From Actinomycetota bacterium (GTDB taxonomy: Bacteria; Actinomycetota; Acidimicrobiia; Acidimicrobiales; Ilumatobacteraceae), in contig JBPOIX010000274.1 of the NCBI GenBank assembly GCA_052034175.1, positions 1-48,533 of the forward strand: DNA of 48,533 nucleotides. The letters run 5' to 3'. The position numbers were made by a program, and so were the translations under genes. Below are positions 5,726-42,660 of this stretch, piece by piece (position 1 is the first letter of the stretch; each line of letters opens with the position of its first letter). The notes beneath the pieces were generated by a model, which worked only from the letters and a program-made list of their open reading frames with translations, did no database searches and had not been told where the DNA came from.

Positions 5726-5734
5726 GGTGCCGGC

Positions 5735-12277: not shown

Positions 12278-12298
12278 CCCCGGGCGGGCGCGCCACCA

Positions 12299-12318: not shown

Positions 12319-12327
12319 CGCGCGTTG

Positions 12328-13749: not shown

Positions 13750-13872
13750 CGCCAACAGCCTACGAGGGGCCTGAACCTCCAACTTCCGTTCAGCGCTACC
13801 GGCGCACCTCGTGCATCGCGGCCACCGTCGAGTCTCGGCAGAGTTGTTCGTCAGCGCCGGTATGCGGCCTCG

Positions 13873-16687: not shown

Positions 16688-16690
16688 AAG

Positions 16691-16711
16691 TATCGGCCAC
16701 CACCGATGTAT
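16691..16711. promoter_or_regulatory. Candidate operator upstream of the ArsR-ATPase-lspA unit
   Basis: ATCGG-ccacca-CCGAT is an inverted repeat, extended by CCGATGTATC. The related sequence CCGATGTCATC occurs at 18859-18869 upstream of the paralogous regulator. Confidence 0.3.
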
Positions 16712-16779
16712 CTGTCAACGCCGATTGATCTGGTCCTCGCGAGCCGCGCGACAGCCGCAAGCGGCACCCACCTACGCTG

Positions 16780-25268: not shown

Positions 25269-25358
25269 GACGTCAGGACACCAGGCCCACCTCGGCGCGC
25301 CCGGTGAGCCCGCTGTGAATTCGATGAGAGCGGCGCGGCCCTGCCGCCCAGCACACCC

Positions 25359-27935: not shown

Positions 27936-28014
27936 GTCGCCGCTCAGGCGCGGAGCGTTTGCTACTTTTTCCGTCAACGCGGCATGGGTGGGCCGCCGGA
28001 CGGGAGAACTGAAT

Positions 28015-30159
28015 ATGGGTACGCGCTCGCGCAAGGTCGTGGTCGTCAGCGGTTCGGCGGCAATCGTCGCGGCCGCAACACCGCTGGGAGGGGTGGGCAC
28101 CGCACATGCGGCGTCGTTCGAGGTCACCAACCTCAACGACGCCGGTGCAGGCTCCCTGCGCCAGGCCGTCCTCGATGCCAACGCGGCGGCCGGGCCGGAC
28201 GTCATCACGTTCCAGTCGGGTCTCAGCGGCACGATCCTGCTGACCACGGGGCAGCTGACCATCACCGACTCGGTGCACATCCAGGGGCCGGGCGCGGCGG
28301 TGCTGACGGTGGACGGCAACAACTCGAGCCGGATCTTCTACCTCTACAACAGCGCCGACGCGGCGAACGACGTCACGATCTCTGGCCTCACGTTGACCAA
28401 CGGCCATGCGAGCCAGGGCGGCGCGATCTCCGCCCGGGGCGATGACCTGAGCCTGCAGAACATGGTGCTGCGGGACAGCGGCGCCCTCTACGGCGGCGGG
28501 CTGTTCTTCACCGGCAACTTCATCGGCGAAACGTTCGACTCGGTCGGCGCCCTCACGATCCTCGACTCGGCGATCACCGGCAACGACGCGGACAACTCCG
28601 GCGGCGGCGTCTTCATCGGAGAAACAGGTGCCGACGTGCTCGTCGACGGCACCCTCATCGACGGCAACACCGCCTACTACTACGGCGGTGGCCTGGCCGT
28701 GCGCTCGGCCTGGCACGACGTGGACATCATCGACTCGCAGATCACGGGCAACGACGCCACCGGCGACGGCGGCGACGGAGGCGGCCTGTTCTTCGACGCT
28801 GCGGGCGAGGTCTACGTGACGGTCACCGGCACCACCGTGTCAGGCAACGAGGCCGTGGACGACGGTGGTGGCATCGTGTTCGGCGACAGGAACGAGCCGG
28901 GCTACACCGGCATCCTCGTCATCGACAGCAGCACCATCTCCGACAACTCCGCCTACTACGGCGATGGCGGCGGGCTGTGGTTCGACTACGCCTTCGGGGT
29001 CGAGGTCGTCAACAGCACGATCTCCGGCAACTATGTCGGGGGAACAGGCGGCGGCGTCCACATGCAGGGCGCTGCAGGTTGGGTGTACATCGAACACTCC
29101 ACCATCACCGACAACTACGCGGGCTACGCCGGCGGTGGCGTCTTCCTCGACGATGAGCAGACGGCCGAAATCGATCACACCATCGTGTCCGGCAACACCA
29201 GCGACGGCGGGTACGAGGACGTCGATGGGTCCGGGTCGCTCACTGCCCACTGGTCGCTGATCGGCGACGCCGCGGCGATCGTCAGTGGTTCCGACAACCT
29301 CGACGACGACAGCCCCGAGCTCGAACCGTTGGCGGACAACGGCGGCCCGACCTTCACCCACATGCCCCAGTCGGGCAGCCCTGCGCTGGACGCCGGCGAC
29401 CCGGCCATCAGCGGCGAGCCCGAGTTCGACCAGCGCGGCGAGGACCGCATCGACGGGGTCATCGACATCGGCGCGGTCGAAGCGCAGGTCAGCCCCGACG
29501 ACGATGCGTACACCGCCTCCGAGGATGTCGTGCTCAACGTGCCCGCCCCGGGTGTGCTCGACAACGACGACCTCTCGGGCAACGCCGTCGTGGTCGACCA
29601 GCCCACCCACGGCACGCTCACACTCAACCCCGACGGGTCCTTCGTCTACACGCCGGCCGCCAACTTCCACGGCTCGGACTCGTTCACCTATGCGCTGGAT
29701 CAGGAAGGTGGCACGGGCTCGTTGGCGGCCGCGCCGTTGACGGCCACCGTCAGCCTCACCGTCAACCCGGTGAACGACCCGCCGGTGGCGCAGAACGATG
29801 CGCTGTCCGCCACCGCCGGCGTGGGCTCGTCGGTGACGGTGAAGGTGAACGACAGCGACGCCGACGGCGACCCGCTGACAATCGTGGGTGTCACCCAGGG
29901 CGCCAAGGGCACGGTGGTGATCGAGGGCAACACGGTGCGCTACACCGCGAATCAGGGCACCAGCGGCACCGACACCTTCACCTACACGATCTCCGACGGC
30001 CAGGAGACCTCGACGGCCACGGTGACGGTCACCATCACCGGTGGGCGCATCCCCGATACCGGCACGTCGTCGTGGAGCCTCGTGATCGCTGCCGCGGCGC
30101 TGCTGGGCGCGGGCTCGGTGCTCACGGGCGCCACTCGCCGGCGGCGCCCCCTGGCCTGA
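28015..30159 (+). CDS. Secreted beta-helix (CSLREA / choice-of-anchor-Q-like) plus cadherin-like surface protein with C-terminal IPDTG sorting signal (paralog 1)
   Basis: A signal peptide is followed by NLNDAGAGSLRQAVLDANAAAGPDVITF. GGG(V/L/I)(F/Y) beta-helix repeats follow, then LADNGGPTFTHMPQSGSPALDAGD. Two units of the form VLDNDD...NFHGSDSFTY / NDSDADGDPL come next. The protein ends RIPDTG plus a hydrophobic helix plus RRRR. Confidence 0.88.
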   Translation: MGTRSRKVVVVSGSAAIVAAATPLGGVGTAHAASFEVTNLNDAGAGSLRQAVLDANAAAGPDVITFQSGLSGTILLTTGQLTITDSVHIQGPGAAVLTVDGNNSSRIFYLYNSADAANDVTISGLTLTNGHASQGGAISARGDDLSLQNMVLRDSGALYGGGLFFTGNFIGETFDSVGALTILDSAITGNDADNSGGGVFIGETGADVLVDGTLIDGNTAYYYGGGLAVRSAWHDVDIIDSQITGNDATGDGGDGGGLFFDAAGEVYVTVTGTTVSGNEAVDDGGGIVFGDRNEPGYTGILVIDSSTISDNSAYYGDGGGLWFDYAFGVEVVNSTISGNYVGGTGGGVHMQGAAGWVYIEHSTITDNYAGYAGGGVFLDDEQTAEIDHTIVSGNTSDGGYEDVDGSGSLTAHWSLIGDAAAIVSGSDNLDDDSPELEPLADNGGPTFTHMPQSGSPALDAGDPAISGEPEFDQRGEDRIDGVIDIGAVEAQVSPDDDAYTASEDVVLNVPAPGVLDNDDLSGNAVVVDQPTHGTLTLNPDGSFVYTPAANFHGSDSFTYALDQEGGTGSLAAAPLTATVSLTVNPVNDPPVAQNDALSATAGVGSSVTVKVNDSDADGDPLTIVGVTQGAKGTVVIEGNTVRYTANQGTSGTDTFTYTISDGQETSTATVTVTITGGRIPDTGTSSWSLVIAAAALLGAGSVLTGATRRRRPLA

Positions 30160-30184
30160 CCAGCCCTCTGACCCGAGCGGCGCG

Positions 30185-33151
30185 TCAGGCGTCCGCGCGG
30201 AGGTCGCCGAGCACGTCCTCGGGCAGCACGAACGCCCCCGCACCCAGCGCATCGCCGGGCTCGAGCAGCTCGGCGAAGCGATGGGGCAGCACCTGCACGT
30301 CGAACACCTCTTCCACCGCGCCGTCGAAGCGGAGGAAGCCGACGATGGCGCCGTCCTCGGTGTCCACCACCCACACGCCACACTGCCGTTCGGTGACCCG
30401 TTCGGCCAGCGGCAGGCCGGCGAACACGTGCTCGCGCACCTTGGACAGGCCCACGAGCGCATAGCGCCCCACGAAGGCCAGGCCGCGGGTGAAGCCAGGG
30501 AGGAGTGCCACGTTGGTCCGGTTGCCGGTGGCCACGTCCACGGTGCACAGCGCGCCGTTGCCCGAGTCCAGCACCCACAGCTGCCCCTGGTGCCACCGCG
30601 GCGAGTGGGGCATCGTCATGCCCTGGGTGATGATGGCGTTGTCGTCGATGTCGATGATCAGGCCACCGCCGACCTTCTCCCGCCGCCAGCCGTGGCGCTC
30701 GTCGGACATGGCGAGCGCGGTGACGTACTTCGGTCGATCTTCCACCATCGCCAACCCGTTGAGGTGGCAGCGGTCCTCGGCCGCCAGCGCAGTGACGAAC
30801 GGGGGGCGCCAGCGCGGCACGAAGCTGTGCTCGTGGTCGAGCGTGGCGAGGCATGAGAAGCGGGTGTTGACGACCCACAGCTCGCCATCGGCGTCGTAGG
30901 CCATCTCGTGGATCGCGATGTCGCCCGTGACATGTGCGGCGCGGGCCACGTAGCACGCGTCGTGTACGGCCTCGCCGGGGAGGCGTTCGGCCAACGCCGG
31001 TTGGTTGTCGAAGTGCCACACGTTGGTGCTGGTGCCGAGGGCCATCTGCCCGCCACCCGCGGCCACGCCCATCGGCCGCGGGAAGGCGCGGAGGTGGGTG
31101 TTCAGCGTGCCGTCGGCGTTGGGGCGCAGGAGCACCACGCGGCCGCTCTGGTAGGTGGTGACGATCACGCTGCGTGCGGCCTTGCTCAGCAGTTCGGCCA
31201 CCGTGCCGGTGTGCACACTGCGGAACGCCTGCTGGCCCGCCGCCTGCACCGCGGCCCGCCGAGCAGCAACCCGCTGCTGGTTGGCGGGCGGGGCCTGCTT
31301 CATCGTCAGCGAGCCCTGCGGCGCGGCGATGAAGGCCGCGGCGCGTTCGGCCACCGGCGCCGCATGGTGCCACGCGCGGTTGATCTCCGCTTCGTTGCGC
31401 TTCCACTTGTCCGCCGCCGGCGCATCCAGGGTGGTCTTCGAGTTCGGCAGCTGCGCGGGCAGCGGCCGATCCCATTCCAGGCCGAGGCGGTCAGCCAGGC
31501 CGCCGACCACCCCGTTCGGGTCGGCGAGCATCTCCTCGTGGCTCACCGCGCACCAGCGGTCGGCGGGGAGGGCTTCGAGGTCGTCGAGCAGCATCGACAC
31601 CGTGGCGGCCCACTGGCGCGCCGCCACGTCTTCCAGTGGAAGGCCGATGTAGTCCTCCCAGCCGGGCACGAGCAGCATCGACCACGGGGCATCGCCCCAG
31701 CCCGGAAGCCCGCGATAGGTGACGAAGCGCTCCGAGCGCCAGGCGTCCAGCATGCTGCTGATCGTCGGCTTCGGGTCGCGGTGGAGGTAGAGGAAGCCGG
31801 CGTCGGGGAAGGCCTCGGCGAGGAAGGGGATGCGCAGCGCGTTCTTCGGTGTCTTCTCCAGCAGGCGGATCGGTGCCCTCCCGACCGGCACCCGCCCATC
31901 CCGGTCGCGGGCCCGTGCGGCGAACGTCTCGTCGAGCCGGGTGGCCAACGCCGGGGTGACATCGCCCGCATCGAGACGGTTGGAGTGCCACCCGCGGCTC
32001 GCAGGGTGCAGCTCGCGGTTGCGCTCGAACACCTCGTGGCTCTCGCCGCCGATCGTGAACAGGCCCTTGGCCCGCGCCAGGGACTCGAACAGCAGGGAGC
32101 TGCCGGAGCGCGGCGAGCTGACGATGAACACCGGGCGCTCCAGGCGCCTCCCGGTCCCTGAGGTGCGAGTTCCGCGCTGCGGTGCGTTCGGCGGGGGCGC
32201 CCACTGTGGCGGGCGGTGCGCCGGCGCATTCTCGCCGGGCAAGGGGGCCAGGCTCGGCCGGATCAACAGTTGGCGCACGGTCTCGGCGAAACCGCTCCCG
32301 TTCGTCAGCTGGACTTTGGGGAGGCGTTGCAGCTGTTCGTCGAGGCGTGCCGCCACCCTGTCGTACAGGGGGCGGGCCGCAGGGTCGTCGCGGTGGATCA
32401 CCCACAGCGCGTGCCAGTCGGCCACGAAGTCCCGCATCGCCACGCGGAGCTCCGCTGGTGCGCCGTCAGGAAGGTCGCTGGCGATGCCGTCGGCCATCAC
32501 CCGATGCAGCCAGGGGGCGGTGGTGACGAGCGGCTCGGCGGACTCGTAGATCGGCTCGGCATCGCCTTCGACCAGCGACCCGATGGGTTCACCCTCGATG
32601 CCGTGCACGTCGCCGTCGTCGATGCGGTGCCACAACGCCGCGGACCCGACGGTGTCGATGACGAGGTGCACTCTGGCGAAGTCCGCAGGGTTGTCCACCC
32701 CGTGGCGCTGCCAGGTATCGAACACCCACACCTCGCCCGGCGCCATGTGCACCGACCGCTCGTCACACGTGAAACGCACATCGGGGTGGGTGATCACCGG
32801 CGCGTGGACGCGCATGTGCTCCTGCCAGTAGCGGTTGGTGTCCACGTGCAGGTCGAGATGCCCCTCCGGCTCGATGCGCATCAGGCGGGTGCGGCCGATC
32901 GGTGCGCCCAGCGAGGCGAGCACGGTGCGGTGGTACGGCATCTGCAGCAGGTGCTTCGTGGGTGCCATCGCGCCCGTGGTGGCATGGTCCAGATGGTTGC
33001 CGCCGGACGCCACCAGCTGCACGCAGGTGTTCCCCGGCGCACCCTCGGGGTGGGGGATCCACGCGTCGTCGGGGAGGGCCAGCACTTCGGCGGCCAGCCG
33101 CTCGGCGTCCACGCGCAGGGCCAGACGGATGAAGGTGCGGTCGAGACGCAT
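30185..33151 (-). CDS. 988-aa tri-domain fusion: Asp/Asn beta-hydroxylase-like, sulfotransferase, TIGR03032/DUF4915-like
   Basis: aa ~90-170 read GHLDLHVD...RVHAPVITHP...PGEVWVFDTWQRHGVDN...RVHLVIDTV (aspartyl/asparaginyl beta-hydroxylase fold pattern). aa ~338-600 read PVFIVSSPRSGSSLL and LLEKTPKNALRIPFL (PAPS-binding sulfotransferase motifs). aa ~640-960 read VIVTTYQSGRVVLL, DRCHLNGLAM, PHSPRWHQGQLWVLDSGNG and VFDVQVLP (TIGR03032-like). No signal peptide or TM. Only the lower 2967 nt of ORF 30185..34576 are coding. Confidence 0.85.
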   Translation of the reverse strand: MRLDRTFIRLALRVDAERLAAEVLALPDDAWIPHPEGAPGNTCVQLVASGGNHLDHATTGAMAPTKHLLQMPYHRTVLASLGAPIGRTRLMRIEPEGHLDLHVDTNRYWQEHMRVHAPVITHPDVRFTCDERSVHMAPGEVWVFDTWQRHGVDNPADFARVHLVIDTVGSAALWHRIDDGDVHGIEGEPIGSLVEGDAEPIYESAEPLVTTAPWLHRVMADGIASDLPDGAPAELRVAMRDFVADWHALWVIHRDDPAARPLYDRVAARLDEQLQRLPKVQLTNGSGFAETVRQLLIRPSLAPLPGENAPAHRPPQWAPPPNAPQRGTRTSGTGRRLERPVFIVSSPRSGSSLLFESLARAKGLFTIGGESHEVFERNRELHPASRGWHSNRLDAGDVTPALATRLDETFAARARDRDGRVPVGRAPIRLLEKTPKNALRIPFLAEAFPDAGFLYLHRDPKPTISSMLDAWRSERFVTYRGLPGWGDAPWSMLLVPGWEDYIGLPLEDVAARQWAATVSMLLDDLEALPADRWCAVSHEEMLADPNGVVGGLADRLGLEWDRPLPAQLPNSKTTLDAPAADKWKRNEAEINRAWHHAAPVAERAAAFIAAPQGSLTMKQAPPANQQRVAARRAAVQAAGQQAFRSVHTGTVAELLSKAARSVIVTTYQSGRVVLLRPNADGTLNTHLRAFPRPMGVAAGGGQMALGTSTNVWHFDNQPALAERLPGEAVHDACYVARAAHVTGDIAIHEMAYDADGELWVVNTRFSCLATLDHEHSFVPRWRPPFVTALAAEDRCHLNGLAMVEDRPKYVTALAMSDERHGWRREKVGGGLIIDIDDNAIITQGMTMPHSPRWHQGQLWVLDSGNGALCTVDVATGNRTNVALLPGFTRGLAFVGRYALVGLSKVREHVFAGLPLAERVTERQCGVWVVDTEDGAIVGFLRFDGAVEEVFDVQVLPHRFAELLEPGDALGAGAFVLPEDVLGDLRADA

Positions 33152-33250
33152 AGTCGGGTGAACATAGCCCGGCTCGTGGACCCATTCCCATGTGGTAGCT
33201 TCCCCACGCTGCGCAGCGGGCGCGCCACGGCACGGGAACCGGGGTTTGAC

Positions 33251-35392
33251 ATGGGTGGAAGCAAGCGGAAGATCGTCGTCCTCACGGGCTCGGCGACGGC
33301 GGTCGTGGCCGCCACACCGTTCGTGGGGGTCGGCGCTGCGGAGGCGGCGTCGTTCAACGTCACCAACCTCAACGACTCCGGTGCGGGATCGTTGCGGCAG
33401 GCGCTCCTCGACGCCAACGGTGCTGCAGGCCCGGACGTCATCACGTTCCAGGCCGGGCTCACCGGCACCATCGTGCTCACCACCGGCGACATTGGCATCA
33501 ACGACTCCGTCGACATCCAGGGCCCCGGGGCCGCCGTGCTCACGGTCAGCGGCAACAACGCCAGCCGCATCTTCTACCTCTACAACTCGCAGAACACGCC
33601 GATCGACGTCACGATCTCCGGGCTGACGCTCACCGCCGGCGCGGATGACGATGGCGGTGCGATCCATGTGTTTGGCGAGGTCCTCGAACTCGACGAGATG
33701 GTGATCACCGAGAACGTCGCCCAGTATCAGGGCGGCGGCGTGTACTTCTCCGCCAACTATGTCGAGGCGTCGGGCCAATTCGGCCAGCTGACGATCACGG
33801 ACTCCGAGATCAGCGGCAACCACGCAGAGGACGGCGGCGGGGTGTACGTCAACTACAGCGGCGATCCGCTGCTGATCTCGAACACCACGGTCTCCGGTAA
33901 CTATGCCGAGGACAACGGTGGCGGCCTCGCCCTGTACAGCACGACCTCGACCGTCACCATCACCGACTCGCGCATCGTCGACAACGACGCGTACGGGGTT
34001 GGTGGCGGCATCTACCTGTACGACACCGACGGCGGTGAGGTCCACGTCGTCCGCTCCACGATCTCCGGCAATGAAGCAGGTGACGACGGAGGCGGGATCT
34101 ACTTCTACGACCTCGACGACAGCGTGGTGATCGATTCGAGCACGATCTCCGGCAACTACTCCGGCGACGACGGCGGCGGCATCTATGTGCGGAACGAGCC
34201 CCAGTACCTCTCGATCGTCAACTCCACCATCTCCGGGAACTACGCCGACAGCAGGGGCGGTGGCATCTTCCTCGGGCAGGTCTCGGCAGAAGAGTTGACC
34301 TCGATCGACCACTCGACGATCACCGACAACTACGCCGTTGATGGCGGTGGCGGGATCTACCTCTACGGGTCCGGGGTCGATCTCTTCCACACGATCGTGT
34401 CGGGGAACTCGACCGACGGCGGCGACCAAGACCTTGACGGCGCGAACTTCTTCCTCTCGGCAGACTGGTCGCTGCTGGGCGACACGCCGACCCCAGGCAG
34501 TGGTGCGAACAACATCTACTACACCAACCCGGGGCTCGAGTCCCTGGCGGACAACGGTGGGCCGACCGAGACCCACGCGCCGATGTCAGGTTCACCGGCG
34601 TTGGAGGCAGGCGATCCGGCCATCACGGGCGAGCCGGAGTTCGATCAGCGCGGCGAGGCTCGTGTGGACGGCATCATCGAGATCGGCGCGGTGGAGGAGA
34701 ACCTCGGGCCGGTGGACGACGCGTACTCGGTGAACGAGGATGCCGTGCTGAACGTCGCAGTTCCGGGTGTTCTGGACAACGACGTTCCCGGTGGCCTGGC
34801 GACGGTGGTGTTGGAGACGGGGCCGGCGCACGGCACCTTGTCGCTGAACGCCGATGGCTCGTTCACCTACACGCCTGCGGCGAACTTCCACGGCGCGGAT
34901 TCGTTCGTCTACTCGCTGCTGGTGGGGCAGCCGACGTCGTTGGAGATCGAGCCGGAGATGGAGCCCGTGCCGACGGCGACCGTGGCGATCACGGTGAACG
35001 CGGTCAACGATCCGCCTGTGGCCCAGAACGACACCGCCGCGGCAACCGTCGGGGTCGGGTCGTCGGTCACCGTGCAGACGAACGACAGCGACGCCGACGG
35101 CGACCCGCTGACGATCGTGGGTGTCACCCAGGGCGCCAAGGGCACGGTGGTCATCCAGGGCAACACGGTCCGCTACACCGCGAACCAGGGCGCCAGCGGC
35201 ACCGACACCTTCACGTACACGATCTCTGACGGCAGCGAGACCTCCACGGCCACGGTCACCGTCACGATCACCGGCGGGCGCATCCCCGACACCGGGAGCT
35301 CCTCGTGGTCGCTGGTGTTCGTGGCCGCCGGCCTGCTCGGCGCTGGTGCCGCGCTGACCGGTTCCTCCCGCCGCCGCCGCACCCCCGCCTGA
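33251..35392 (+). CDS. Secreted beta-helix plus cadherin-like surface protein with IPDTG sorting signal (paralog 2)
   Basis: Same architecture as 28015..30159: NLNDSGAGSLRQALLDANGAAGPDVITF, LADNGGPTETHAPMSGSPALEAGD, and a RIPDTGSSSWSLV...RRRR end. Divergent from the tri-domain gene across a 99-nt gap. Confidence 0.88.
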   Translation: MGGSKRKIVVLTGSATAVVAATPFVGVGAAEAASFNVTNLNDSGAGSLRQALLDANGAAGPDVITFQAGLTGTIVLTTGDIGINDSVDIQGPGAAVLTVSGNNASRIFYLYNSQNTPIDVTISGLTLTAGADDDGGAIHVFGEVLELDEMVITENVAQYQGGGVYFSANYVEASGQFGQLTITDSEISGNHAEDGGGVYVNYSGDPLLISNTTVSGNYAEDNGGGLALYSTTSTVTITDSRIVDNDAYGVGGGIYLYDTDGGEVHVVRSTISGNEAGDDGGGIYFYDLDDSVVIDSSTISGNYSGDDGGGIYVRNEPQYLSIVNSTISGNYADSRGGGIFLGQVSAEELTSIDHSTITDNYAVDGGGGIYLYGSGVDLFHTIVSGNSTDGGDQDLDGANFFLSADWSLLGDTPTPGSGANNIYYTNPGLESLADNGGPTETHAPMSGSPALEAGDPAITGEPEFDQRGEARVDGIIEIGAVEENLGPVDDAYSVNEDAVLNVAVPGVLDNDVPGGLATVVLETGPAHGTLSLNADGSFTYTPAANFHGADSFVYSLLVGQPTSLEIEPEMEPVPTATVAITVNAVNDPPVAQNDTAAATVGVGSSVTVQTNDSDADGDPLTIVGVTQGAKGTVVIQGNTVRYTANQGASGTDTFTYTISDGSETSTATVTVTITGGRIPDTGSSSWSLVFVAAGLLGAGAALTGSSRRRRTPA

Positions 35393-35462
35393 CCCCGGAC
35401 AGGGTTGGCGCGAGGGGCCTTCGCCCCTTGCCGCCGGAGGGGTTGAGGGGGACACTGCATGC

Positions 35463-36620
35463 GTGGATGACTTCACGAGTGCGACTGCCACGCTCGACCC
35501 CGTGGCGGGTGTCGACGCGTTGGTACACGCCCTGGCCGGTGACGGCTACCGGGTCGTCGGCCCGACCGAGCGCGACGGTGTGATCTCGTACCGCGAACTG
35601 TCGCGGGGCACGGACATGCCCACCGGCGTGCGCACCGAGCAGAGGGCGGGCTCCTTCCGTCTCGCTCACGACGGCGAGACCCGCTTCGGCTGGACGCCGG
35701 CGGCGGACTCCTGGCGTGCCTGGGTGTTCCCTGCGGAGGAGGAAGTGCTGCGCATCCGCCGGACGGACGGCTCGTTCGTCACCACTCGTCCGGCGCTGCC
35801 CACCCAGCCCTTGGCGCTGTTCGCCGCGCGGGACTGCGAGGTCCGCGCCCTGGGCATCCTCGACCGCGTCCTGCTGGAGGGCGCCCACCCCGACCCGCGG
35901 TACGCGGCCCGCCGCAACGACGCGTTCATCGTGGCCGTCACCTGCACCACCCCCTCCGAGAGTTGCTGGTGCACCGGCACGGGCGGCGGCCCCCAGCCCC
36001 GAGCCGACTTCGACATCCGCCTCACAGAGCTCACCGAGGGTGGGCATCGGCTGCTGGCCGAGGCCGGCAGCGAACGCGGGGCCGCTCTGCTGCAGCGGCT
36101 GGCCGCGCCGGCTGCCACGGGCGCTGACCTCGCTGCCGCCGAGACGGTGGTGGAACGGGCTGTCGCGGCGATCCGCCGTCCGGTGGACGCCGCCGCTCTG
36201 ACCATGCAGCTGGCGGGGAAGGACCGGGACGTGCAGTGGGAGGCCGTGGCCGAACGCTGCTTCGCCTGCGGCAACTGCACGCTGGTGTGCCCGACGTGCT
36301 TCTGTGTCGCCTACGACGACGTCACGGCGCTCACCGACGACGGTGGGCCGGCGGTGGAAACGGTTCGCCGCCAACAGTGGGCGTCGTGCTTCCAACTCGA
36401 CCACTCCAACCTCGGCGGCAAGCCGGTGCGCGCCAGCGTGGCCTCCCGCTACCGCCAATGGCTGACCCACAAGCTGCAGACCTGGGAGGCCCAGTTCGGC
36501 ACGGCGGGTTGTGTCGGCTGTGGCCGCTGCACCACCTGGTGCCCCGCAGGCATCGACCTACCCGCGGAAGCGGCGCTGCTGGCAGCCACGACAGCCCCTG
36601 CTCAAGGAGGCACACAATGA
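35463..36620 (+). CDS. hyhB: 4Fe-4S cluster subunit of a group 3-type [NiFe]-hydrogenase (beta subunit, AsrA-like)
   Basis: Contains CFACGNCTLVCPTCFC and CVGCGRCTTWCPAGI ferredoxin motifs. GTG start. ATGA coupling to the next gene. Confidence 0.8.
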   Translation: MDDFTSATATLDPVAGVDALVHALAGDGYRVVGPTERDGVISYRELSRGTDMPTGVRTEQRAGSFRLAHDGETRFGWTPAADSWRAWVFPAEEEVLRIRRTDGSFVTTRPALPTQPLALFAARDCEVRALGILDRVLLEGAHPDPRYAARRNDAFIVAVTCTTPSESCWCTGTGGGPQPRADFDIRLTELTEGGHRLLAEAGSERGAALLQRLAAPAATGADLAAAETVVERAVAAIRRPVDAAALTMQLAGKDRDVQWEAVAERCFACGNCTLVCPTCFCVAYDDVTALTDDGGPAVETVRRQQWASCFQLDHSNLGGKPVRASVASRYRQWLTHKLQTWEAQFGTAGCVGCGRCTTWCPAGIDLPAEAALLAATTAPAQGGTQ

Positions 36621-37078
36621 CCGATCTCTCCGCGCTGTTGGCGGGGCACCCGTTCTTCACCGGGGTCGACCCCGCACTCCTTGGTCGCCTGGCTTCGGTG
36701 ACCGCGGTGGAGGAGTTCCCGGCAGGTTCCTGGGTGGCTCATTCGGGCGCGCCGGCGGACCGCTTCTACGCCGTCATCGCTGGCCGCGCCGGGATCGAGA
36801 TCGCCGCCGCAGGGCGCGAGCCACTCCTGGTGGCCACCGTGCACCCTGGGGAAGTGATCGGCTGGTCGTGGTTCGTCGAACCCCACGAGTGGCACTTCGA
36901 CGTGCTGGCGCTGGAACCCTTGCGCACCCTGGCGATGGACGCCACTGCGCTGCGTGCTGCGTGCCGCGCCGACCATGAGCTCGGCTATCAGGTGGCCCAC
37001 CGGCTGGCCCGCGTCGTGGCCTCGCGCCTGGTGGCCACCCGGCATCAACTGGTGGATGTCTATGGCCGCGAACGCTGA
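36617..37078 (+). CDS. Stand-alone cyclic-nucleotide-binding (CAP effector) domain protein, no DNA-binding domain
   Basis: Reads LLAGHPFFTGVDPALLGRLAS...EFPAGSWVAHSGAPADRFYAVIAGRAGIEI...GEVIGWSW. The protein is only 153 aa. Confidence 0.75.
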   Translation: MTDLSALLAGHPFFTGVDPALLGRLASVTAVEEFPAGSWVAHSGAPADRFYAVIAGRAGIEIAAAGREPLLVATVHPGEVIGWSWFVEPHEWHFDVLALEPLRTLAMDATALRAACRADHELGYQVAHRLARVVASRLVATRHQLVDVYGRER

Positions 37079-37877
37079 CCCGATGCTCCCGTCGCCCTAC
37101 CTGGTGACGGCTGCAGCCCCCGAGACACCGGATGTCGTCAGCCTCACGCTGACCCCGGTCGATTCGCCGATCCTGCCCCCCGGGCCCGGGCAGTTCGTGA
37201 TGATCTGGGTCCCGGCGGTCGGCGAGGTGCCGATCTCCGTCAGCCGCGTCACGCCCGCCGGCGACCTCGTGCTGACGGTGCGGTCCGTGGGCGCAGTGAG
37301 CGCAGCCATCGTCGGCCAGGCGGATGGTGGCGTGGTCGGCATCCGCGGCCCGTTCGGCACCGAGTGGCCCGTCGCCGAGGTGGCCGGCGGCGACGTGCTC
37401 GTGGTGGCCGGAGGCCTCGGGCTGGCCCCGTTGCGCATGGCGGTCGACCGGCTGGTGGCCGCGGCCGCGCCACAGGTGACCGTGGTGGCAGGCGCCCGCG
37501 AGCCGGACCAGATGCTCTACCCGGCCGACCTTGCGAACTGGGCTGCTGCCGGCGCCGCGGTGCACACCACCGTCGACGCCGCCGACCGCAACTGGGCCGG
37601 CGCGGTGGGCACGGCGACGGCGATGGTGGAACGGCTGGGCCGTGGGTTCGACGCGGCCTTCGTGTGCGGGCCGGAGATCATGATGACCACCGCTGCTCGG
37701 GCCGCCACGCGCGCCGGCACCCCTGCCGGGGGAGTGTGGGTCTCGCTCGAGCGCAACATGCACTGCGGTGTCGCCCGTTGCGGGCGATGCCAGCTGGGCC
37801 CGCTGCTGCTGTGCCGCGACGGTGCAGTCGTTCCCTGGGCCGTGTCCGCCGACCTGCTGGAGGTGCGTGGACGATGA
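37062..37877 (+). CDS. hyhG: FAD/NAD(P)-binding, [2Fe-2S] gamma subunit of the hydrogenase (AsrB / PyrK-like)
   Basis: Reads GQFVMIWVPAVGEVPISVS, VVAGGLGLAPL and the C-terminal CGVARCGRCQLG. The start is uncertain (37056, 37062 or 37083). Confidence 0.8.
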   Translation: MAANADPMLPSPYLVTAAAPETPDVVSLTLTPVDSPILPPGPGQFVMIWVPAVGEVPISVSRVTPAGDLVLTVRSVGAVSAAIVGQADGGVVGIRGPFGTEWPVAEVAGGDVLVVAGGLGLAPLRMAVDRLVAAAAPQVTVVAGAREPDQMLYPADLANWAAAGAAVHTTVDAADRNWAGAVGTATAMVERLGRGFDAAFVCGPEIMMTTAARAATRAGTPAGGVWVSLERNMHCGVARCGRCQLGPLLLCRDGAVVPWAVSADLLEVRGR

Positions 37878-38629
37878 CTGCCCCCACCCGTCCCACTGTT
37901 GCCGTGTGGAAGTTCGCTTCCTGCGACGGCTGCCAGCTCACCGTGCTCGACTGCGAGGACGAGCTGCTGCAGATCGCCGCGGCGCTGGACATCCGCATGT
38001 TCCTCGAGGCCGGCCCGGAGGAACTGCTGGACCACTACGACATCTCCCTCGTCGAGGGTTCGGTCACCACCGCCCACGACGCCGAACGGATCCAGGACAT
38101 TCGGGCCCGCTCCGGCCTGTTGATCACGATCGGCGCCTGCGCCACGGCTGGCGGCATCCAGGCGCTGCGCAACTCGGCCGACGTGGGGGAATACACGGCC
38201 GCCGTCTACGCGCGGCCGGACTGGATCCACACCCTGGCCACCAGCACGCCGATCTCCGCGCACGTGAAGGTCGACCGTGAGCTGCACGGCTGCCCGATCT
38301 CACGGCACGAGCTGCTCGCCCTGATCACCGCGTTGCTGGCCGGGCGAAGGCCGCCCGTCTCGCGCCACGCCGTCTGCGTGGAATGCAAGCAGGCCGGAAA
38401 CGCGTGCGTGCTCGTGGCCGAAGGAGTGCCGTGCCTCGGGCCGGCCACTCACGCCGGCTGCGGTGCGCTGTGCATGAAGTTTGGGCGTGGCTGCTTCGGC
38501 TGCTTCGGCCCGTGCGAGTCCGCCAACGTGCCCGCGCTGCGCCTGGCATGGCAGGCGGCCGGCATCCCCGAGGGCGAACTGACGCGGGCGCTGCGCACGT
38601 TCAACGTGTCCGCCTGGGAGGAACGATGA
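37874..38629 (+). CDS. hyhS: [NiFe]-hydrogenase small (delta) subunit, NuoB-like
   Basis: Reads VAVWKFASCDGCQLTVLD, ITIGACATAGGIQ, HGCPISRHE and the C-terminal Cys cluster CVECK...CLGPATHAGCGALC. ATGA overlaps on both sides. Confidence 0.88.
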   Translation: MTAPTRPTVAVWKFASCDGCQLTVLDCEDELLQIAAALDIRMFLEAGPEELLDHYDISLVEGSVTTAHDAERIQDIRARSGLLITIGACATAGGIQALRNSADVGEYTAAVYARPDWIHTLATSTPISAHVKVDRELHGCPISRHELLALITALLAGRRPPVSRHAVCVECKQAGNACVLVAEGVPCLGPATHAGCGALCMKFGRGCFGCFGPCESANVPALRLAWQAAGIPEGELTRALRTFNVSAWEER

Positions 38630-39948
38630 CTCACGAACACCGCGCCCGCCGCTTCGAGGTGGATGCGCTCACCCGCGTCGAAGGTGAGGGTGGCCTGATC
38701 GTGGAGATCCGCGACGGCGAACTGGCCGACGTCCGCCTGCGCATCTTCGAGCCTCCCCGCTTCTTCGAAGGTTTCCTTCGTGGGCGGCAGTACACCGAGC
38801 CGGTGGACATCACCGCGCGCATCTGCGGCATCTGCCCGGTGGCGTACCAGATGAGTGCCTGCCAGGCCATCGAGGCCGCCTGCGGTGTGGAGGTGGACCC
38901 TGCCATCCGCGACCTGCGCCACCTCCTGTACTGCGGCGAGTGGATCGAGAGCCATGTGTTGCACGTGCACCTGCTGCACGCCCCGGACTTCCTTGGTTAC
39001 CCGAGCGGGATCGCCATGGCGGCCGACCACCGCGGCGCCGTGGAGCGGGGGCTGCGCCTGAAGAAGCTCGGCAACCGGCTGGTGGAGGTGGTCGGTGGGC
39101 GGGCGGTGCACCCCGTGAACGTCCGCGTCGGTGGCTTCTACCGCGCACCCTCCGTGGAGGACATGCGTGGCCTGGAGGAGGAGCTCCTGTGGGCCGTCGA
39201 GACGGCGGCGGAGATCACCCGTTGGGTGGCCACCCTGCCGATGCCCGCCCATCAGCTGCCCGACGGCACGGCGCTGGTGGCGCTGCGGCACCCGACCGAG
39301 TACCCGATGCTCGGCGAGCGGCTGGTGTCGACCCCACTTTCGGACGGCACCCGGCTGGACATCGCCGCGCACGAGTGGCGCGACCACTTCACCGAGGAGC
39401 ACGTGGAGCACTCCACCGCGTTGCACGGCCGGATGTTGGCCGGCGGGGACTACATCGTCGGCCCGCTGGCGCGGTTCGCGCTCAACGCCGACCACCTGGC
39501 ACCCCGTGCCGCGGCGTTGGCGGCCGAGGTCGGGCTCACGCCCGCGGAGCGAAACCCGTTCCGCAGCATCGTGGTTCGTGCGGTCGAAACGCTGCACGCC
39601 TGTGAGGTGGCGTTGCGCATCGTGCAGGGCTACCGCCTGCCCGAGCGTTCGTTCGTGCCGGTCGCCGCGCGCGCCGGCGTCGGGTGCGGCTGGACGGAGG
39701 CGCCGCGCGGCCTGCTGTGGCATCGCTACGAATTGGCCGCCGATGGCTCCATCGTGACGGCGCAGATCGTGCCGCCGACCTCGCAGAACCAGCCGGCCAT
39801 CGAGCACGACCTGATGCATCTCATCGAGCACTCCTTGGAGCTGGACGATGACGCGCTGGAGGCACTGTGCGAGCAAGCGGTGCGCAACTACGACCCGTGC
39901 ATCTCCTGCGCCACCCACTTCCTCGACATGCGAGTCGTCCGTTCGTGA
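38626..39948 (+). CDS. hyhL: [NiFe]-hydrogenase large (alpha) subunit
   Basis: N-terminal Ni-Fe ligand motif RICGICPVAY, preceded by TRVEGEGG. C-terminal motif DPCISCATHFLD. Confidence 0.92.
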   Translation: MTHEHRARRFEVDALTRVEGEGGLIVEIRDGELADVRLRIFEPPRFFEGFLRGRQYTEPVDITARICGICPVAYQMSACQAIEAACGVEVDPAIRDLRHLLYCGEWIESHVLHVHLLHAPDFLGYPSGIAMAADHRGAVERGLRLKKLGNRLVEVVGGRAVHPVNVRVGGFYRAPSVEDMRGLEEELLWAVETAAEITRWVATLPMPAHQLPDGTALVALRHPTEYPMLGERLVSTPLSDGTRLDIAAHEWRDHFTEEHVEHSTALHGRMLAGGDYIVGPLARFALNADHLAPRAAALAAEVGLTPAERNPFRSIVVRAVETLHACEVALRIVQGYRLPERSFVPVAARAGVGCGWTEAPRGLLWHRYELAADGSIVTAQIVPPTSQNQPAIEHDLMHLIEHSLELDDDALEALCEQAVRNYDPCISCATHFLDMRVVRS

Positions 39949-40433
39949 GCGTGGCGGCGCCGCACGTCACGGTGATCGGCATCGGCAACCCGTACCGGCG
40001 CGACGATGGCGCCGCAGCCGCAGTGCTGCGGCAGCTGGCGGAGGAGTTCACCGGCGACCCGGATGTTCGGCTGGTGGAGCTGGATGGCGAGTCCGTGCGC
40101 CTGGTGCAGGCGTGGGAAGGGTCGCGGGTGGTGTGGATCGTGGACGCGGTGCGCAGCGGCCGCCCGCCTGGCACCGTCCACGAGGTGGAGGCCACGCGCC
40201 TCGCTGATCTGGACGACTCCGGCCGCCGGCTCGGCGGTGGCCACCTGATGGGCCTGTCCGAGGCGGTGGAGCTGGCCCGCGCGCTCGACCTTCTGCCCGC
40301 GGAGCTGAGGGTGCTCGGCATCGAGGGGGAGGACTTCGACCACGGCGAAGGCCTCTCGCCGTCCGTGCGCGAAGGGGTGCACGCGGCGGCAGCACTGCTG
40401 ACGGCGGCCGTGCGGAGCCGGTCGGGCCAATAG
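39945..40433 (+). CDS. Hydrogenase maturation endopeptidase
   Basis: Reads VIGIGNPYRRDDGAAAAVL...WIVDAV...GGGHLMGL, typical of HycI/HyaD/HoxW-type proteases. GTGA overlap with the large-subunit stop. Confidence 0.85.
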   Translation: MSVAAPHVTVIGIGNPYRRDDGAAAAVLRQLAEEFTGDPDVRLVELDGESVRLVQAWEGSRVVWIVDAVRSGRPPGTVHEVEATRLADLDDSGRRLGGGHLMGLSEAVELARALDLLPAELRVLGIEGEDFDHGEGLSPSVREGVHAAAALLTAAVRSRSGQ

Positions 40434-40524
40434 GCCGTTCGGCCCCTCCCAGCGATCGCCACGTGCGTGCTAGCTTCGCTCACGATGCGGGCTGGGCAGC
40501 CCGTGGGATGGGAGCACGGGAATC

Positions 40525-42660
40525 ATGGTTGGCAAGCGCAAGGTCGTCGTTTTCTCAGGTTCGGCCGCCGCCGTGGTCGTCGCCACCCCGTTCGTGGGTG
40601 TGGGCACGGCGTCCGCCGTGTCGTTCGAGGTCACGAACCTCAGCGACTCCGGCGCCGGCTCCCTGCGCCAAGCCATCGAGGACGCCAACAACGTCGCGGG
40701 TCCGGATGTCATCACGATCCAGTCCGGCTTGTCGGGCACGATCACGCTCTCGTCCGGCCATCTGAGCATCAACGACTCCGTCGAGATCCAGGGTTCCAGC
40801 GACGTCACGATCAGCGGTGGCAACGCGTCGCGCATCTTCTACCTCTACAACTCGACCGCCACCCCGATCGAGGTCACCATCAGCGGCTTCGCCCTCGAGG
40901 ACGGTGCCGCGTCGGAAGGTGGTGCCGTGAAGGTGGCCGACGCTCACCTCTCGTTGAGCGCGGTGTCGATTGCCAACAACGCCGCCGACGGCGACGGCGG
41001 CGCCATCTGGATCGACGGTGACGACGGGTGGCTCGAGGTCGACGATTCCGTCATCGCGGACAACTCCGCCGGTGCCGCCGGTGGCGGCGTCTTCGTGGGC
41101 GAGGTGGCCGAAGTCAGCCTGCGGACCTCCACCGTGGAGGCGAACTATGCCGGCGATGACGGCGGTGGTGTCTACATCCGCTCCACCACCGACGGCTTCT
41201 CGCTCGCCGACAGCGAGCTGGCTGTCAACTCCGCGGCCCAGCAGGGCGGCGGCCTGTTCGTCGAAACGAGCGACGGCGACGAGATGGTCGTCCTCCGCTC
41301 GACCATCTCGGGGAACGTGGCCCGCGACGGTGGCGGCATCTACATCAACAGCCCCACCGACCCGCTCATCATCGACCAGTCCACCATCAGCGACAACACC
41401 GCCACCTTCGACGGTGGCGGGGTGTTCATCTACCTCGGCTACTACGCGGAGATCACCTCGAGCACGATCTCCGGCAACGAAGCCGGCGACCAAGGTGGCG
41501 GCGTCTACCTCAACGAGACCTTCTACTACGACAGCGGCGACGGCTTCTACGCGTCGCCGCTGAGGGTCGCGCACAGCACGATCACCGAGAACTACTCGGG
41601 GGATGGCGGCGGTGGCATCTACATCGCCGAAGGCTGGCTGGAGCTCGACCACTCGATCGTGTCCGGCAACGACAGCGACGGCGGCTACGAGGACATCGAC
41701 TCGGCCTACTACCACAGCGCCTACCCGTACGCCCCGGTGTACAGCACGTGGTCGCTGGTGGGCGATGTGCGCGAGCTGTACTCGAGCAACGACGACGTGT
41801 ACGACAGCAACCCGATGTTGGATTCGCTGGCCGACAACGGCGGCCCCACCGAGACCCACCTCCTGCTGCCCGGAAGCCCGGCCAGTGAAGCCGGCGACCC
41901 CGCGATCAGCGGTGCTCCCACGACCGACCAGCGTGGCCTTACCCGCATCGTCGGGGCCATCGACATCGGTGCGGTCGAGGCCCAGATCGTGCTCGAGGAC
42001 GACGAGTTCTCCACCAACGAGGACACCGTGCTCACCGTCGCGGTGCCCGGCGTGCTGGACAACGACCAGGTGGACGTGCCGGCCGTGGCGTCGGTGGTGG
42101 CAACCCCCACCAGCGGCACGCTCGTCCTGAACGCGGACGGCTCGTTCACGTACACCCCGAACGCCAACTTCCACGGCTCGGACACCTTCCGCTACACGGT
42201 CACCGAAGCCGACGTCACCGCGTTGCAGGCGGAACCCGTGAGCGCCGAGGTCACGATCACCGTCAACCCGGTGAACGACCCGCCGGTGGCCCTGCCGGAC
42301 ACCGTGACGGCGATGGCCGGGGTGAACACTCCCGTCACCGTCGTGGTGAACGACTCGGACAGCGACGGCGACCCGATCTCGATCGTCGGGGTCACCCAGG
42401 GCGCCAAGGGAACCGTCGTCATCGACGGTAACCAGGTGCGCTACACGCCGAACGCCAACGCGTCGGGCACGGACTCGTTCACTTACACGATCAGCGACGG
42501 CACCACCACGGTCACCGCCACCGTCACCGTCACCATCCTTCGCGGGCGCATCCCCGAGACCGGTACGTCATCGTGGTCGCTGGTGTTCGGCGCGTTCGGC
42601 TTGCTCGGGGCGGGCATGGTGCTCACCGGTACCGCCCGCCGCCGCCCGCGCCGGGCGTAA
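40525..42660 (+). CDS. Secreted beta-helix plus cadherin-like surface protein with IPETG sorting signal (paralog 3, most diverged)
   Basis: Reads NLSDSGAGSLRQAIEDANNVAGPDVITI, LADNGGPTETHLLLPGSPASEAGD and VLDNDQ...NFHGSDTFRY. Ends RIPETGTSSWSLVFGAFGLLGAGMVLTGTARRRPRRA. Confidence 0.88.
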   Translation: MVGKRKVVVFSGSAAAVVVATPFVGVGTASAVSFEVTNLSDSGAGSLRQAIEDANNVAGPDVITIQSGLSGTITLSSGHLSINDSVEIQGSSDVTISGGNASRIFYLYNSTATPIEVTISGFALEDGAASEGGAVKVADAHLSLSAVSIANNAADGDGGAIWIDGDDGWLEVDDSVIADNSAGAAGGGVFVGEVAEVSLRTSTVEANYAGDDGGGVYIRSTTDGFSLADSELAVNSAAQQGGGLFVETSDGDEMVVLRSTISGNVARDGGGIYINSPTDPLIIDQSTISDNTATFDGGGVFIYLGYYAEITSSTISGNEAGDQGGGVYLNETFYYDSGDGFYASPLRVAHSTITENYSGDGGGGIYIAEGWLELDHSIVSGNDSDGGYEDIDSAYYHSAYPYAPVYSTWSLVGDVRELYSSNDDVYDSNPMLDSLADNGGPTETHLLLPGSPASEAGDPAISGAPTTDQRGLTRIVGAIDIGAVEAQIVLEDDEFSTNEDTVLTVAVPGVLDNDQVDVPAVASVVATPTSGTLVLNADGSFTYTPNANFHGSDTFRYTVTEADVTALQAEPVSAEVTITVNPVNDPPVALPDTVTAMAGVNTPVTVVVNDSDSDGDPISIVGVTQGAKGTVVIDGNQVRYTPNANASGTDSFTYTISDGTTTVTATVTVTILRGRIPETGTSSWSLVFGAFGLLGAGMVLTGTARRRPRRA

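Follow-up and report, generated by a model that had tools for sequence, protein, structure and literature searches.

The three surface-protein genes and the enzyme gene described here probably belong to an undescribed system that modifies surface proteins chemically before their export. The conserved partner of the beta-helix genes is the TIGR03032 domain of the enzyme, not the whole fusion. The window, by which we mean the entire 48,533-nucleotide stretch analysed, holds three beta-helix copies and one enzyme fusion only (Table 1). From the genomic evidence, and with modest confidence, we favour a joint reading in which a conserved two-part module has expanded locally here and its beta-helix proteins are modified before export, probably by hydroxylation and O-sulfation; the substrate role, the order of steps, the target residue and the role of TIGR03032 are what we infer. 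The module would pair a cytoplasmic enzyme, built on the propeller domain TIGR03032, with at least one secreted beta-helix protein whose N-terminal cap is of the GSLRQA type and whose C-terminal cap is choice-of-anchor Q.

Table 1. Features of the locus, in window coordinates
Feature	Coordinates	Strand	Description
par1 upstream element	27955..28014	+	Extended -10-like TGnTAnnnT, hairpin, GGGAG ribosome-binding site; three sequences compared, weak
par1	28015..30159	+	714 aa surface protein; IPDTG sorting signal aa 680-714; choice-of-anchor Q aa 434-491
Tri-domain enzyme	30185..33151	-	988 aa; 2OG/Fe(II) hydroxylase, PAPS-type sulfotransferase and TIGR03032/DUF4915 beta-propeller
TIGR03032/DUF4915 domain	30281..31216	-	aa 646-957; predicted six-bladed beta-propeller
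Sulfotransferase domain	31469..32134	-	aa 340-561, Sulfotransfer_3; PRSGSS phosphosulfate-loop motif conserved
Hydroxylase domain	32552..33151	-	aa 1-200; Pfam Asp_Arg_Hydrox match aa 65-167
par2 upstream element	33190-33250		Homologous to par1 element; within 99-nt divergent intergenic region 33152..33250
par2	33251..35392	+	713 aa surface protein, par1-like architecture; divergent from enzyme gene
NiFe-hydrogenase operon	35463-40433		Between par2 and par3
par3 upstream element	40462..40524	+	Homologous to par1 and par2 elements; three sequences compared, weak
par3	40525..42660	+	711 aa surface protein, par1-like architecture; IPETG signal; downstream of hydrogenase operon

The paralogs par1, par2 and par3 are 56-64% identical to one another, and the coordinates and architecture given for them in the original prediction hold at the lengths in Table 1. 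Each has a signal peptide with an AxA end, a TNL(N/S)D(A/S)GAGSLRQA motif, GGG(V/I)(Y/F) coils with a repeat period of ~84 nt, and an LADNGGPTxTH...GSPAxxAGD segment that matches choice_anch_Q (NF041518; 63-74 bits, cutoff 25). Two tandem-95/Big_9/Cadherin_5 modules follow (NF012211; 90-108 bits, cutoff 90), and the C-terminus consists of RIP(D/E)TG, a hydrophobic stretch and RRRR; both the signal and the anchor hydrophobic segments are present. The sorting-signal model TIGR01167 scores par1 and par2 marginally above its cutoff, and the same profile search gave no match in par3. The N-terminal motif of the window proteins, for which a CSLREA profile search had been proposed, does not match CSLREA_Nterm. 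An AlphaFold model of par2 (pLDDT 86) places the beta-helix at aa 34-405 and the cap at 406-490, and also shows two Ig/cadherin-like domains. Its best beta-helix PDB match is Rhombotarget A (RbtA) of Acinetobacter baumannii (PDB 9CDU/9CDV; PMC12643943), which shares the signal peptide, an xSLRxA cap, the right-handed beta-helix, an NGGPTxT...SPAxDxG cap and a variable C-terminal sorting signal. The window proteins differ from RbtA in having IP(D/E)TG instead of GlyGly-CTERM and in their two tandem-95/cadherin-like domains, and TIGR04212 gives them sub-threshold matches (29-49 bits against the RbtA equivalog cutoff of 295). Homologs are named ‘choice-of-anchor Q’, ‘IPTL-CTERM’ or ‘MYXO-CTERM’ in databases; in the literature we found no report linking choice-of-anchor Q or RbtA-type proteins to TIGR03032.

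The enzyme between par1 and par2 is the hydroxylase-sulfotransferase-TIGR03032 fusion that had been proposed, with domain scores of 42.9 bits (Asp_Arg_Hydrox), 92.3 bits (Sulfotransfer_3) and 410.6 bits (TIGR03032, cutoff 251.5). The gaps and orientations given for it were exact, namely 25 nt to par1 (convergent) and 99 nt to par2 (divergent). A sequence scan found no hydrophobic segment in the 988 residues and the enzyme is therefore predicted to be soluble, consistent with the cytoplasmic location first proposed. Its catalytic motifs are intact; in the hydroxylase domain, H102-x-D104...H150 and R160 are invariant among homologs, in keeping with the HxD...H triad, 2OG-binding Arg and Cupin 2OG/Fe(II) fold of the aspartyl/asparaginyl beta-hydroxylase family (PF05118: ASPH, LpxO, proline hydroxylases). 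The closest solved relatives of this domain, proline 3- and 4-hydroxylases, act on free amino acids. Related hydroxylase-sulfotransferase proteins in Proteobacteria adjoin TPR-hydroxylase and TPR-sulfotransferase genes, an arrangement that resembles the TPR plus oxygenase layout of ASPH. The nearest solved relatives of the sulfotransferase domain are CurM, OLS sulfotransferases and TPST1/2. The TIGR03032 domain has at least 97% conservation at 68 of 348 positions across seven phyla, including H686, H748, D793-R-C-H-L-N-G799, H849-S-P-R852, R889 and E948; this near-invariant set contains four His, one Cys and several Arg/Asp, and lies on equivalent strands of successive blades. We found no characterised relative of the propeller.

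A homologous beta-helix/choice-of-anchor Q gene is present at 25 of 43 TIGR03032 genome loci (25 of 39 if only usable flanks are counted) and at 0 of 36 loci with the hydroxylase and sulfotransferase only (Fisher p = 2.7e-9). The expectation that the enzyme is enriched beside such surface proteins in other genomes is thus borne out for the TIGR03032 domain and not for the hydroxylase-sulfotransferase without it. At 24 of the 25 positive loci the neighbour is under 700 nt from the TIGR03032 gene, and it may be divergent from that gene, convergent with it or on the same strand. The positive loci belong to Acidimicrobiia, Thermoleophilia, Thermoanaerobaculia, Verrucomicrobiota, Beta- and Gammaproteobacteria, Gemmataceae, Cyanobacteriota and Caldilineaceae, seven phyla in all, so the original framing of the pairing within Actinomycetota was too narrow. 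Paralog arrays like that of the window surround the TIGR03032 gene in five loci (L007, L046, L047, L062, L064). Independent gene calls recovered the pair in 4 of 5 further homolog loci, and the reverse test found 6 TIGR03032 genes within 624 kb flanking 80 metagenomic beta-helix genes. The association is incomplete in both directions: 14 of the 39 usable TIGR03032 loci have no beta-helix neighbour, one close relative carries a 71%-identical fusion with no adjoining beta-helix gene, and most beta-helix genes of the par1-par3 family have no TIGR03032 neighbour. Standalone TIGR03032 genes also pair with beta-helix genes with no sulfotransferase or other enzyme, and sulfation therefore cannot be the core function.

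Fusions and sulfate-supply genes add to the linkage. In two proteins (P0175 and P0180), a sulfotransferase domain 37-42% identical to that of the window lies upstream of a beta-helix module in one ORF; the signal-like segment starts with Met-Arg-Arg, and separate translation products are also possible. One operon (L165) runs from an ATP-sulfurylase/APS-kinase gene through a tri-domain enzyme to a sulfotransferase-beta-helix gene with a 4-nt overlap; in another locus (L164), an APS kinase gene begins 4 nt after the beta-helix gene, and APS kinase genes are nearby in L017, L019 and L083. Elsewhere TIGR03032 is fused with TPR+GT41 (E 1e-85 to 1e-103), GNAT, GT2 or TPR. GT41 and TPR typify enzymes acting on proteins.

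We suggest that the soluble tri-domain enzyme would act in the cytoplasm, on beta-helix proteins that have yet to be exported by Sec and anchored by a sortase-type route. A side chain would be hydroxylated by the 2OG/Fe(II) domain and a hydroxyl O-sulfated by the PAPS-dependent sulfotransferase, and the propeller may dock the substrate or perform a further step; par1, par2 and par3 would be parallel substrates, each with a similar promoter region of its own. Their Sec-type signals mean that modification would require the unfolded state. Comparison of homologs found no residue signature, Tyr included, that tracks sulfotransferase presence in the beta-helix proteins. In HMW1/HMW1C (GT41; PMC3012730, PMC3983070) and in AIDA-I/AAH and TibA/TibC (BAHT; PMC4358343), the gene for a soluble cytoplasmic enzyme likewise adjoins that for a secreted beta-helical adhesin, which is modified at many sites before export, and TIGR03032 is itself joined to GT41 in other bacteria. 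Unlike those enzymes, that of the window lacks a glycosyltransferase domain, is predicted to hydroxylate and sulfate and carries a propeller, and its candidate substrates are sortase-type anchored, not type V secreted. RaxST/RaxX and eukaryotic TPST1/2 (E 7e-8 to 1e-5 to the window domain) offer a PAPS-dependent sulfotransferase gene beside a secreted protein substrate; RaxX, however, is a small type I exported peptide with a single Tyr target (PMC4646787), whereas the window candidates are beta-helix proteins of 700 residues, and their putative enzyme combines the sulfotransferase with a hydroxylase and a propeller. CurM and OLS sulfotransferases (PDB 4GBM, 4GOX) are the best matches (E 5e-12 and 8e-9), although these domains of polyketide synthases work on ACP-bound beta-hydroxyacyl chains and the similarity is family-level only. 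They sulfate a hydroxyl as a leaving group, which would fit the order hydroxylase, sulfotransferase, third domain; that TIGR03032 performs the elimination is pure speculation.

A less probable alternative is that the product or substrate of the enzyme is not a protein but, for example, a sulfated hydroxy-amino acid, a glycan or exopolysaccharide unit or a lipid, which would be bound, processed or displayed outside the cell by the beta-helix proteins, as partners in one pathway. The hydroxylase relatives fit a small-molecule substrate, since they act on free amino acids, and CurM, the best sulfotransferase match, is a small-molecule or ACP-bound enzyme. The right-handed beta-helix is a typical carbohydrate-binding or -cleaving fold, weak similarities to PelZ, NosD and PL6 are seen, and one locus has a NodI-type ABC-2 exporter downstream. 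However, no conserved glycosyltransferase, polymerase or exporter genes were found around the pair, whose neighbours are heterogeneous, and the recurrent unit is two genes only; the sulfotransferase occurs in cis with the beta-helix protein, and TIGR03032 is fused to the protein-directed GT41/TPR types.

It is unlikely that TIGR03032 instead acts in the cytoplasm as an escort, a folding-control factor or a regulator, for instance by keeping the long beta-helix precursor competent for export, with the fused hydroxylase and sulfotransferase serving another purpose. Such a role would suit both the standalone pairs and the Foldseek result, in which the only matches were generic propellers of the peptide-binding or scaffold kind (Kelch, YVTN, designed; TM ~0.5), but the near-invariant positions form a catalytic- or metal-site-like pattern, not a chaperone-like one, and the domain is repeatedly fused to transferases.

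That the arrangement is functionally meaningless, either duplicated adhesin genes beside an unrelated enzyme or variants under alternative expression that an inserted hydrogenase operon has separated, would suit the divergence of the coils (the most variable part of the paralogs, 31-62% identity, as surface variation would predict) and the relative lacking the neighbour, but seems very improbable given adjacency in three orientations across seven phyla (p about 3e-9), the fusion proteins and PAPS operons, the lack of inverted repeats or a recombinase, the upstream element common to the three copies and the ancestral hydrogenase adjacency.

Of the original view of enzyme and choice-of-anchor proteins as one system, the linkage, fusions and PAPS genes support the core; nothing speaks for alternative expression, and the hydrogenase operon is not an insertion. 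No inverted repeats or recombinase were found at the array, and each of the three genes retains a similar upstream element of its own. In a relative whose fusion is 78% identical, acyl-CoA dehydrogenase is followed by the fusion, a beta-helix gene and the hydrogenase; a beta-helix gene already adjoins the hydrogenase there, and the operon is an ancestral neighbour of the array. The par2 position beside the enzyme is likewise ancestral and is widely conserved. In this closest relative, par1 is absent from its position, which marks par1 as the added copy.

Translation and profile searches bore out the original prediction that three paralogous surface proteins are organised around a single fusion of a hydroxylase, a sulfotransferase and a TIGR03032 domain. 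The paralogs (par1, par2 and par3; mutual identity 56-64%) each begin with a signal peptide that has an AxA end, followed by the cap motif TNL(N/S)DxGAGSLRQA and a right-handed beta-helix, whose coils of about 28 residues follow the pattern STISGNxA...GGG(I/V)(Y/F) and give an 81-87-nt periodicity in the DNA. Each C-terminus consists of RIP(D/E)TG, a hydrophobic stretch and RRRR, a candidate tripartite sorting signal. The enzyme contains no hydrophobic segment; its gene converges on par1 across a gap of 25 nt and diverges from par2 across 99 nt, both gaps as predicted.

Genes and operons of the window discussed in the text
Feature	Position	Strand	Remarks
P-type ATPase	1229-3700	+	copper-homeostasis island
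CopC/CopD	8647-10314	-	copper-homeostasis island
P-type ATPase	14403-16358	-	copper-homeostasis island
Multicopper oxidase	16780-18324	-	copper-homeostasis island
CotH kinase-family protein	23802-25358	-	three genes upstream of par1
par1	28015-30159	+	714 aa
Tri-domain enzyme	30185-33151	-	988 aa; hydroxylase + sulfotransferase + TIGR03032/DUF4915
par2	33251-35392	+	713 aa
NiFe-hydrogenase operon	35463-40433		Fe-S/cNMP-binding, NAD-binding, small and large subunits, HycI
par3	40525-42660	+	711 aa

The helix region of the paralogs is matched by the Beta_helix, NosD and Chlam_PMP models. All three proteins carry the choice-of-anchor Q (CAQ) domain (NF041518; 72.0, 63.3 and 74.1 bits for par1, par2 and par3, curated cutoff 25) and, following it, two tandem-95 domains (NF012211; 107.7, 90.2 and 105.8 bits, cutoff 90), and Big_9 matches two stretches per protein with E values of 1e-31 to 1e-32 (PF17963 and PF17892 were the cadherin-like families tested). 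The term choice of anchor denotes shared caps combined with different sorting signals. This is the pattern of the homologous neighbours found in other genomes, which have the N-cap and the CAQ cap in common and whose tails vary across lineages between LPXTG-like, IPTL/PEP-CTERM-like, Lys-rich and dockerin-like; database names of homologs include IPTL-CTERM and MYXO-CTERM. The LPXTG model TIGR01167 scores 17.5 bits for par1 and 16.6 for par2 (cutoff 15.9) and does not match par3. Neither a sortase domain nor a TLxTC motif in a plausible ORF was found within the window, and a sortase may be encoded elsewhere in the genome. In an AlphaFold model of par2 (pLDDT 86), residues 34-405 form the beta-helix, residues 406-490 make up an irregular cap, and two Ig-like domains are seen; the model's top PDB beta-helix match is Rhombotarget A (TM 0.43 over the target), an A. 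baumannii surface protein whose function is unknown (PMC12643943).

Several more specific assignments were rejected. The likeness to Rhombotarget A is one of fold only, as the equivalog TIGR04212 scores 29-49 bits where at least 295 are required and the paralogs lack GlyGly-CTERM. Membership of the CSLREA family fails because TIGR04214, a 27-residue model that includes a Cys, does not match par2 even at E <= 10, and this Cys is replaced by Gly in the paralogs (GAGSLRQA); Thermoleophilia relatives score 17.8-20.9 bits, below the cutoff of 25. PMP repeats are matched by par2 (48.9 bits) and par3 (35.4 bits), but there is no C-terminal barrel of the kind that a chlamydial Pmp-type autotransporter would have, the C-terminus consisting of cadherin-like domains and a sortase-type signal. 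Tat export, with folding before modification, was discarded as a general route, since the window signals (SRK/KRK) and many others have no RR motif; such motifs are present in the signals of some relatives. Database searches for exact copies of the proteins encoded in the window gave no matching record.

Each domain of the enzyme exceeds its family cutoff: 42.9 against 22.6 bits for the hydroxylase (PF05118, Asp_Arg_Hydrox), 92.3 against 27 for the predicted sulfotransferase (PF13469, Sulfotransfer_3) and 410.6 against 251.5 for TIGR03032 (PF16261). In the hydroxylase, H102-x-D104...H150 and R160 are invariant in homologs and align with 7V4F, a beta-hydroxylase of the same family, in which we infer that these positions are ligands. 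The PRSGSS 5'-phosphosulfate-binding loop and downstream R/S positions of the sulfotransferase are invariant in 17 homologs. In TIGR03032, DRCHLNG, MPHSPR and other motifs are invariant. The tri-domain fusion is found widely: its relatives in the database exceed 2,000, among them members of Acidimicrobiia, Thermoanaerobaculia and other groups.

The paralogs and a beta-helix/CAQ-module profile served as queries against 79 genomic loci, each containing a relative of the fusion. Homologous beta-helix genes, one or more per locus, are present at 25 of the 43 loci that have TIGR03032 (or of 39, if loci without usable flanks are set aside) and at none of the 36 that have only the hydroxylase and sulfotransferase (Fisher p = 2.7e-9), the latter mostly from Xanthomonadales and Caulobacterales. 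The proposed pairing of surface protein and enzyme is therefore supported by comparative genomics, but the link is to TIGR03032 and not to the hydroxylase-sulfotransferase. In 24 of the 25 loci the beta-helix gene lies less than 700 nt from the TIGR03032 gene, in divergent, convergent or same-strand orientation, and the lineages span Acidimicrobiia, Thermoleophilia, Mycobacteriales, Thermoanaerobaculia, Verrucomicrobiota, Beta- and Gammaproteobacteria, Gemmataceae, Cyanobacteriota and Caldilineaceae. Arrays of paralogs surround the TIGR03032 gene at five loci (L007, L046 with five copies, L047 with eight, L062 and L064). In the reverse search, the 624 kb flanking 80 metagenomic beta-helix-module loci held six TIGR03032 genes, which is far above chance for a family so rare; most beta-helix genes had no such neighbour. 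Independent gene calls and Pfam annotation of five further loci found the pair in four and not in the fifth. Many TIGR03032 loci have no beta-helix neighbour; clustering revealed no second conserved partner, and the neighbours of these loci are heterogeneous.

On balance, we think that the enzyme acts directly on the beta-helix proteins as substrates. Two homologs, P0175 and P0180, are single ORFs in which a sulfotransferase domain 37-42% identical to that of the window is placed 5' of a signal-like segment and a beta-helix module; the Met-Arg-Arg at the start of this segment leaves room for internal initiation. In the P0175 operon, genes for an ATP-sulfurylase/APS-kinase, a tri-domain enzyme and the sulfotransferase-beta-helix protein follow one another, with a 4-nt overlap. 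An APS kinase gene begins 4 nt after the beta-helix gene at L164, and APS kinases also occur at L017, L019 and L083. That enzyme and surface proteins instead share a pathway acting on a non-protein molecule would suit the hydroxylase, whose closest relatives of solved structure use free amino acids as substrates, and the sulfotransferase, whose best match is CurM ST; we nevertheless regard it as unlikely in view of the P0175 and P0180 ORFs and of the fusion of TIGR03032 to TPR and GT41 domains.

Those fusions belong to a family of about 2,400 clusters at 50% identity, in which TIGR03032 occurs alone, with a sulfotransferase, with hydroxylase and sulfotransferase, with TPR, with TPR and GT41 (E 1e-85 to 1e-103, sometimes with GNAT), and with TPR and GT2. 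In the TIGR03032-TPR proteins of L045, L046 and L050 the C-terminal domain matches GT9 weakly (Pfam, E ~1e-4) and PDB sequence searches with it returned nothing significant, and we therefore rely on the strong GT41 matches in other members. The TIGR03032 model (pLDDT 92) is a six-bladed propeller, for which Foldseek returned generic six-bladed propellers (TM ~0.5) and no specific enzyme. The conservation is striking: when 41 sequences drawn from seven phyla are compared, it reaches at least 97% at 68 of 348 positions, and these near-invariant residues include His686, His748, DRCHLNG (793-799), HSPR (849-852) and several Arg. This pattern suggests a catalytic, possibly metal-binding, site; that TIGR03032 serves as an escort or regulatory factor seems to us improbable. 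Given the neighbourhood counts, it would be very surprising if enzyme and surface proteins had no functional link at all.

Standalone TIGR03032 genes pair with beta-helix genes where there is no sulfotransferase, and sulfation would thus be an add-on, not the core reaction. In the beta-helix proteins compared, the GGGxY coils show no Tyr signature that goes along with a sulfotransferase, and no residue signature distinguishes the sulfotransferase-linked proteins. Tyrosine sulfation of the TPST/RaxST kind would involve Tyr in an acidic context on a secreted protein; the sulfotransferase of the window resembles TPST1/2 at family level. GT41 is the family of OGT and HMW1C, the latter of which carries out cytoplasmic glycosylation of a secreted adhesin (PMC3012730, PMC3983070); BAHT heptosyltransferases likewise modify AIDA-I and TibA (PMC4358343). 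Both are precedents for modification of secreted adhesins before export. In those modules, however, the adjacent enzyme is a glycosyltransferase, whereas the window enzyme has no such domain and GT41 is fused to TIGR03032 in other organisms only, which makes the comparison an analogy of logic and not of membership. By this analogy the system appears to follow the logic of known adhesin/modifying-enzyme pairs with an enzyme family and a chemistry that are new.

Tentatively, and with rather more doubt than we attach to direct action on the proteins, we propose that TIGR03032 could be the catalytic core of an unrecognised multi-phylum maturation pathway for secreted beta-helix surface proteins. 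In the lineage of the window the fused hydroxylase and sulfotransferase would work with this core, and the product on the sortase-anchored proteins might be hydroxylated and O-sulfated residues or, were sulfate to act as leaving group, a residue that has undergone elimination or cross-linking. Each of these would represent a novel type of protein modification in bacteria, and the former would give the first sulfated bacterial surface adhesins. Sulfation of surface proteins by the hydroxylase-sulfotransferase version would extend bacterial protein sulfation beyond RaxX, the example considered here, and heptosylation and N-glycosylation would be joined by a third chemistry with which beta-helical adhesins are decorated before export. 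No mention of TIGR03032, DUF4915 or choice-of-anchor Q was found in the literature searched; the link between TIGR03032 and the CAQ proteins offers each family a testable function, as dedicated cytoplasmic enzyme and secreted clients. CAQ/RbtA-type beta-helix proteins are abundant, functionally uncharacterised surface proteins, one of which belongs to the pathogen A. baumannii.

The hydrogenase operon had been read as an insertion into, or a passenger of, the array. In a relative whose fusion is 78% identical, the genes run from acyl-CoA dehydrogenase through the fusion and a divergent beta-helix gene to the hydrogenase Fe-S subunit, as they do in the window but for the absence of par1. It follows that the hydrogenase is a neighbour of long standing and par1 the inserted duplicate. 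A tract of about 120 nt in the last (second tandem-95) domain (approximately 29935-30054 in par1 and 35168-35287 in par2) has 95% nucleotide identity, against 50-79% elsewhere, which suggests gene conversion. The paralogs share a putative upstream element (27955-28014, 33190-33250 and 40462-40524), weakly supported with three sequences, which comprises an extended -10-like TGnTA(G)CTT, a GC-rich hairpin with two compensatory pairs, and GGGAG before the ATG. An Rfam scan of the window found no family, this element included, and a sigma-70 consensus scan found nothing. No inverted repeats were found, and hence no invertible switch that could provide the suggested alternative expression of the paralogs.

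A cyclic-nucleotide-binding domain is encoded in the Fe-S subunit region of the hydrogenase operon (Fer4_22 + cNMP_binding), a pairing that also adjoins a beta-helix gene in a related Acidimicrobiaceae MAG. P0131, from a 456,294-nt contig of another assembly, is a near-identical copy of par3 shortened to 635 aa by an apparent frameshift; it ends in ...GAKGNRRHRR and has GSLRPA instead of GSLRQA, reflecting either strain variation or assembly error. Proteobacterial beta-helix homologs (L046 6583-16873, L039 11171-13480, P0175 and P0180) have a cytoplasmic N-terminal extension of 90-300 aa, a sulfotransferase domain in two cases, which ends in a conserved LPxGxRRxL directly before the hydrophobic signal-like segment.

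At L053 (11148-13682) and L168 (9999-11927) a secreted FG-GAP/Ig-like repeat protein adjoins TIGR03032 and there is no beta-helix gene, so the clients of the propeller enzyme may extend to other secreted repeat proteins. An ECF-type sigma factor gene and a following unannotated gene adjoin the enzyme/beta-helix pair at L166 (6162-7679) and L160 (6215-8433), which may be a regulatory link. The two-domain enzyme of Xanthomonadales, Steroidobacteraceae and Caulobacterales, which has no TIGR03032 (loci L021-L077), sits in a different conserved cluster with a TPR-sulfotransferase, a TPR-Asp/Asn hydroxylase, extra small hydroxylases and a TonB-dependent receptor; this looks like a separate uncharacterised hydroxylation/sulfation system. 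Elsewhere in the window, the copper-homeostasis island (1229-18324) also encodes DUF305, DUF3105 and DUF1775 proteins, a zf-HC2 anti-sigma-like protein and an Rce1-like protease. The CotH kinase-family gene lies beside an aminotransferase and an acyl-CoA dehydrogenase gene in a block that is 99% identical in the metagenome contig L080.
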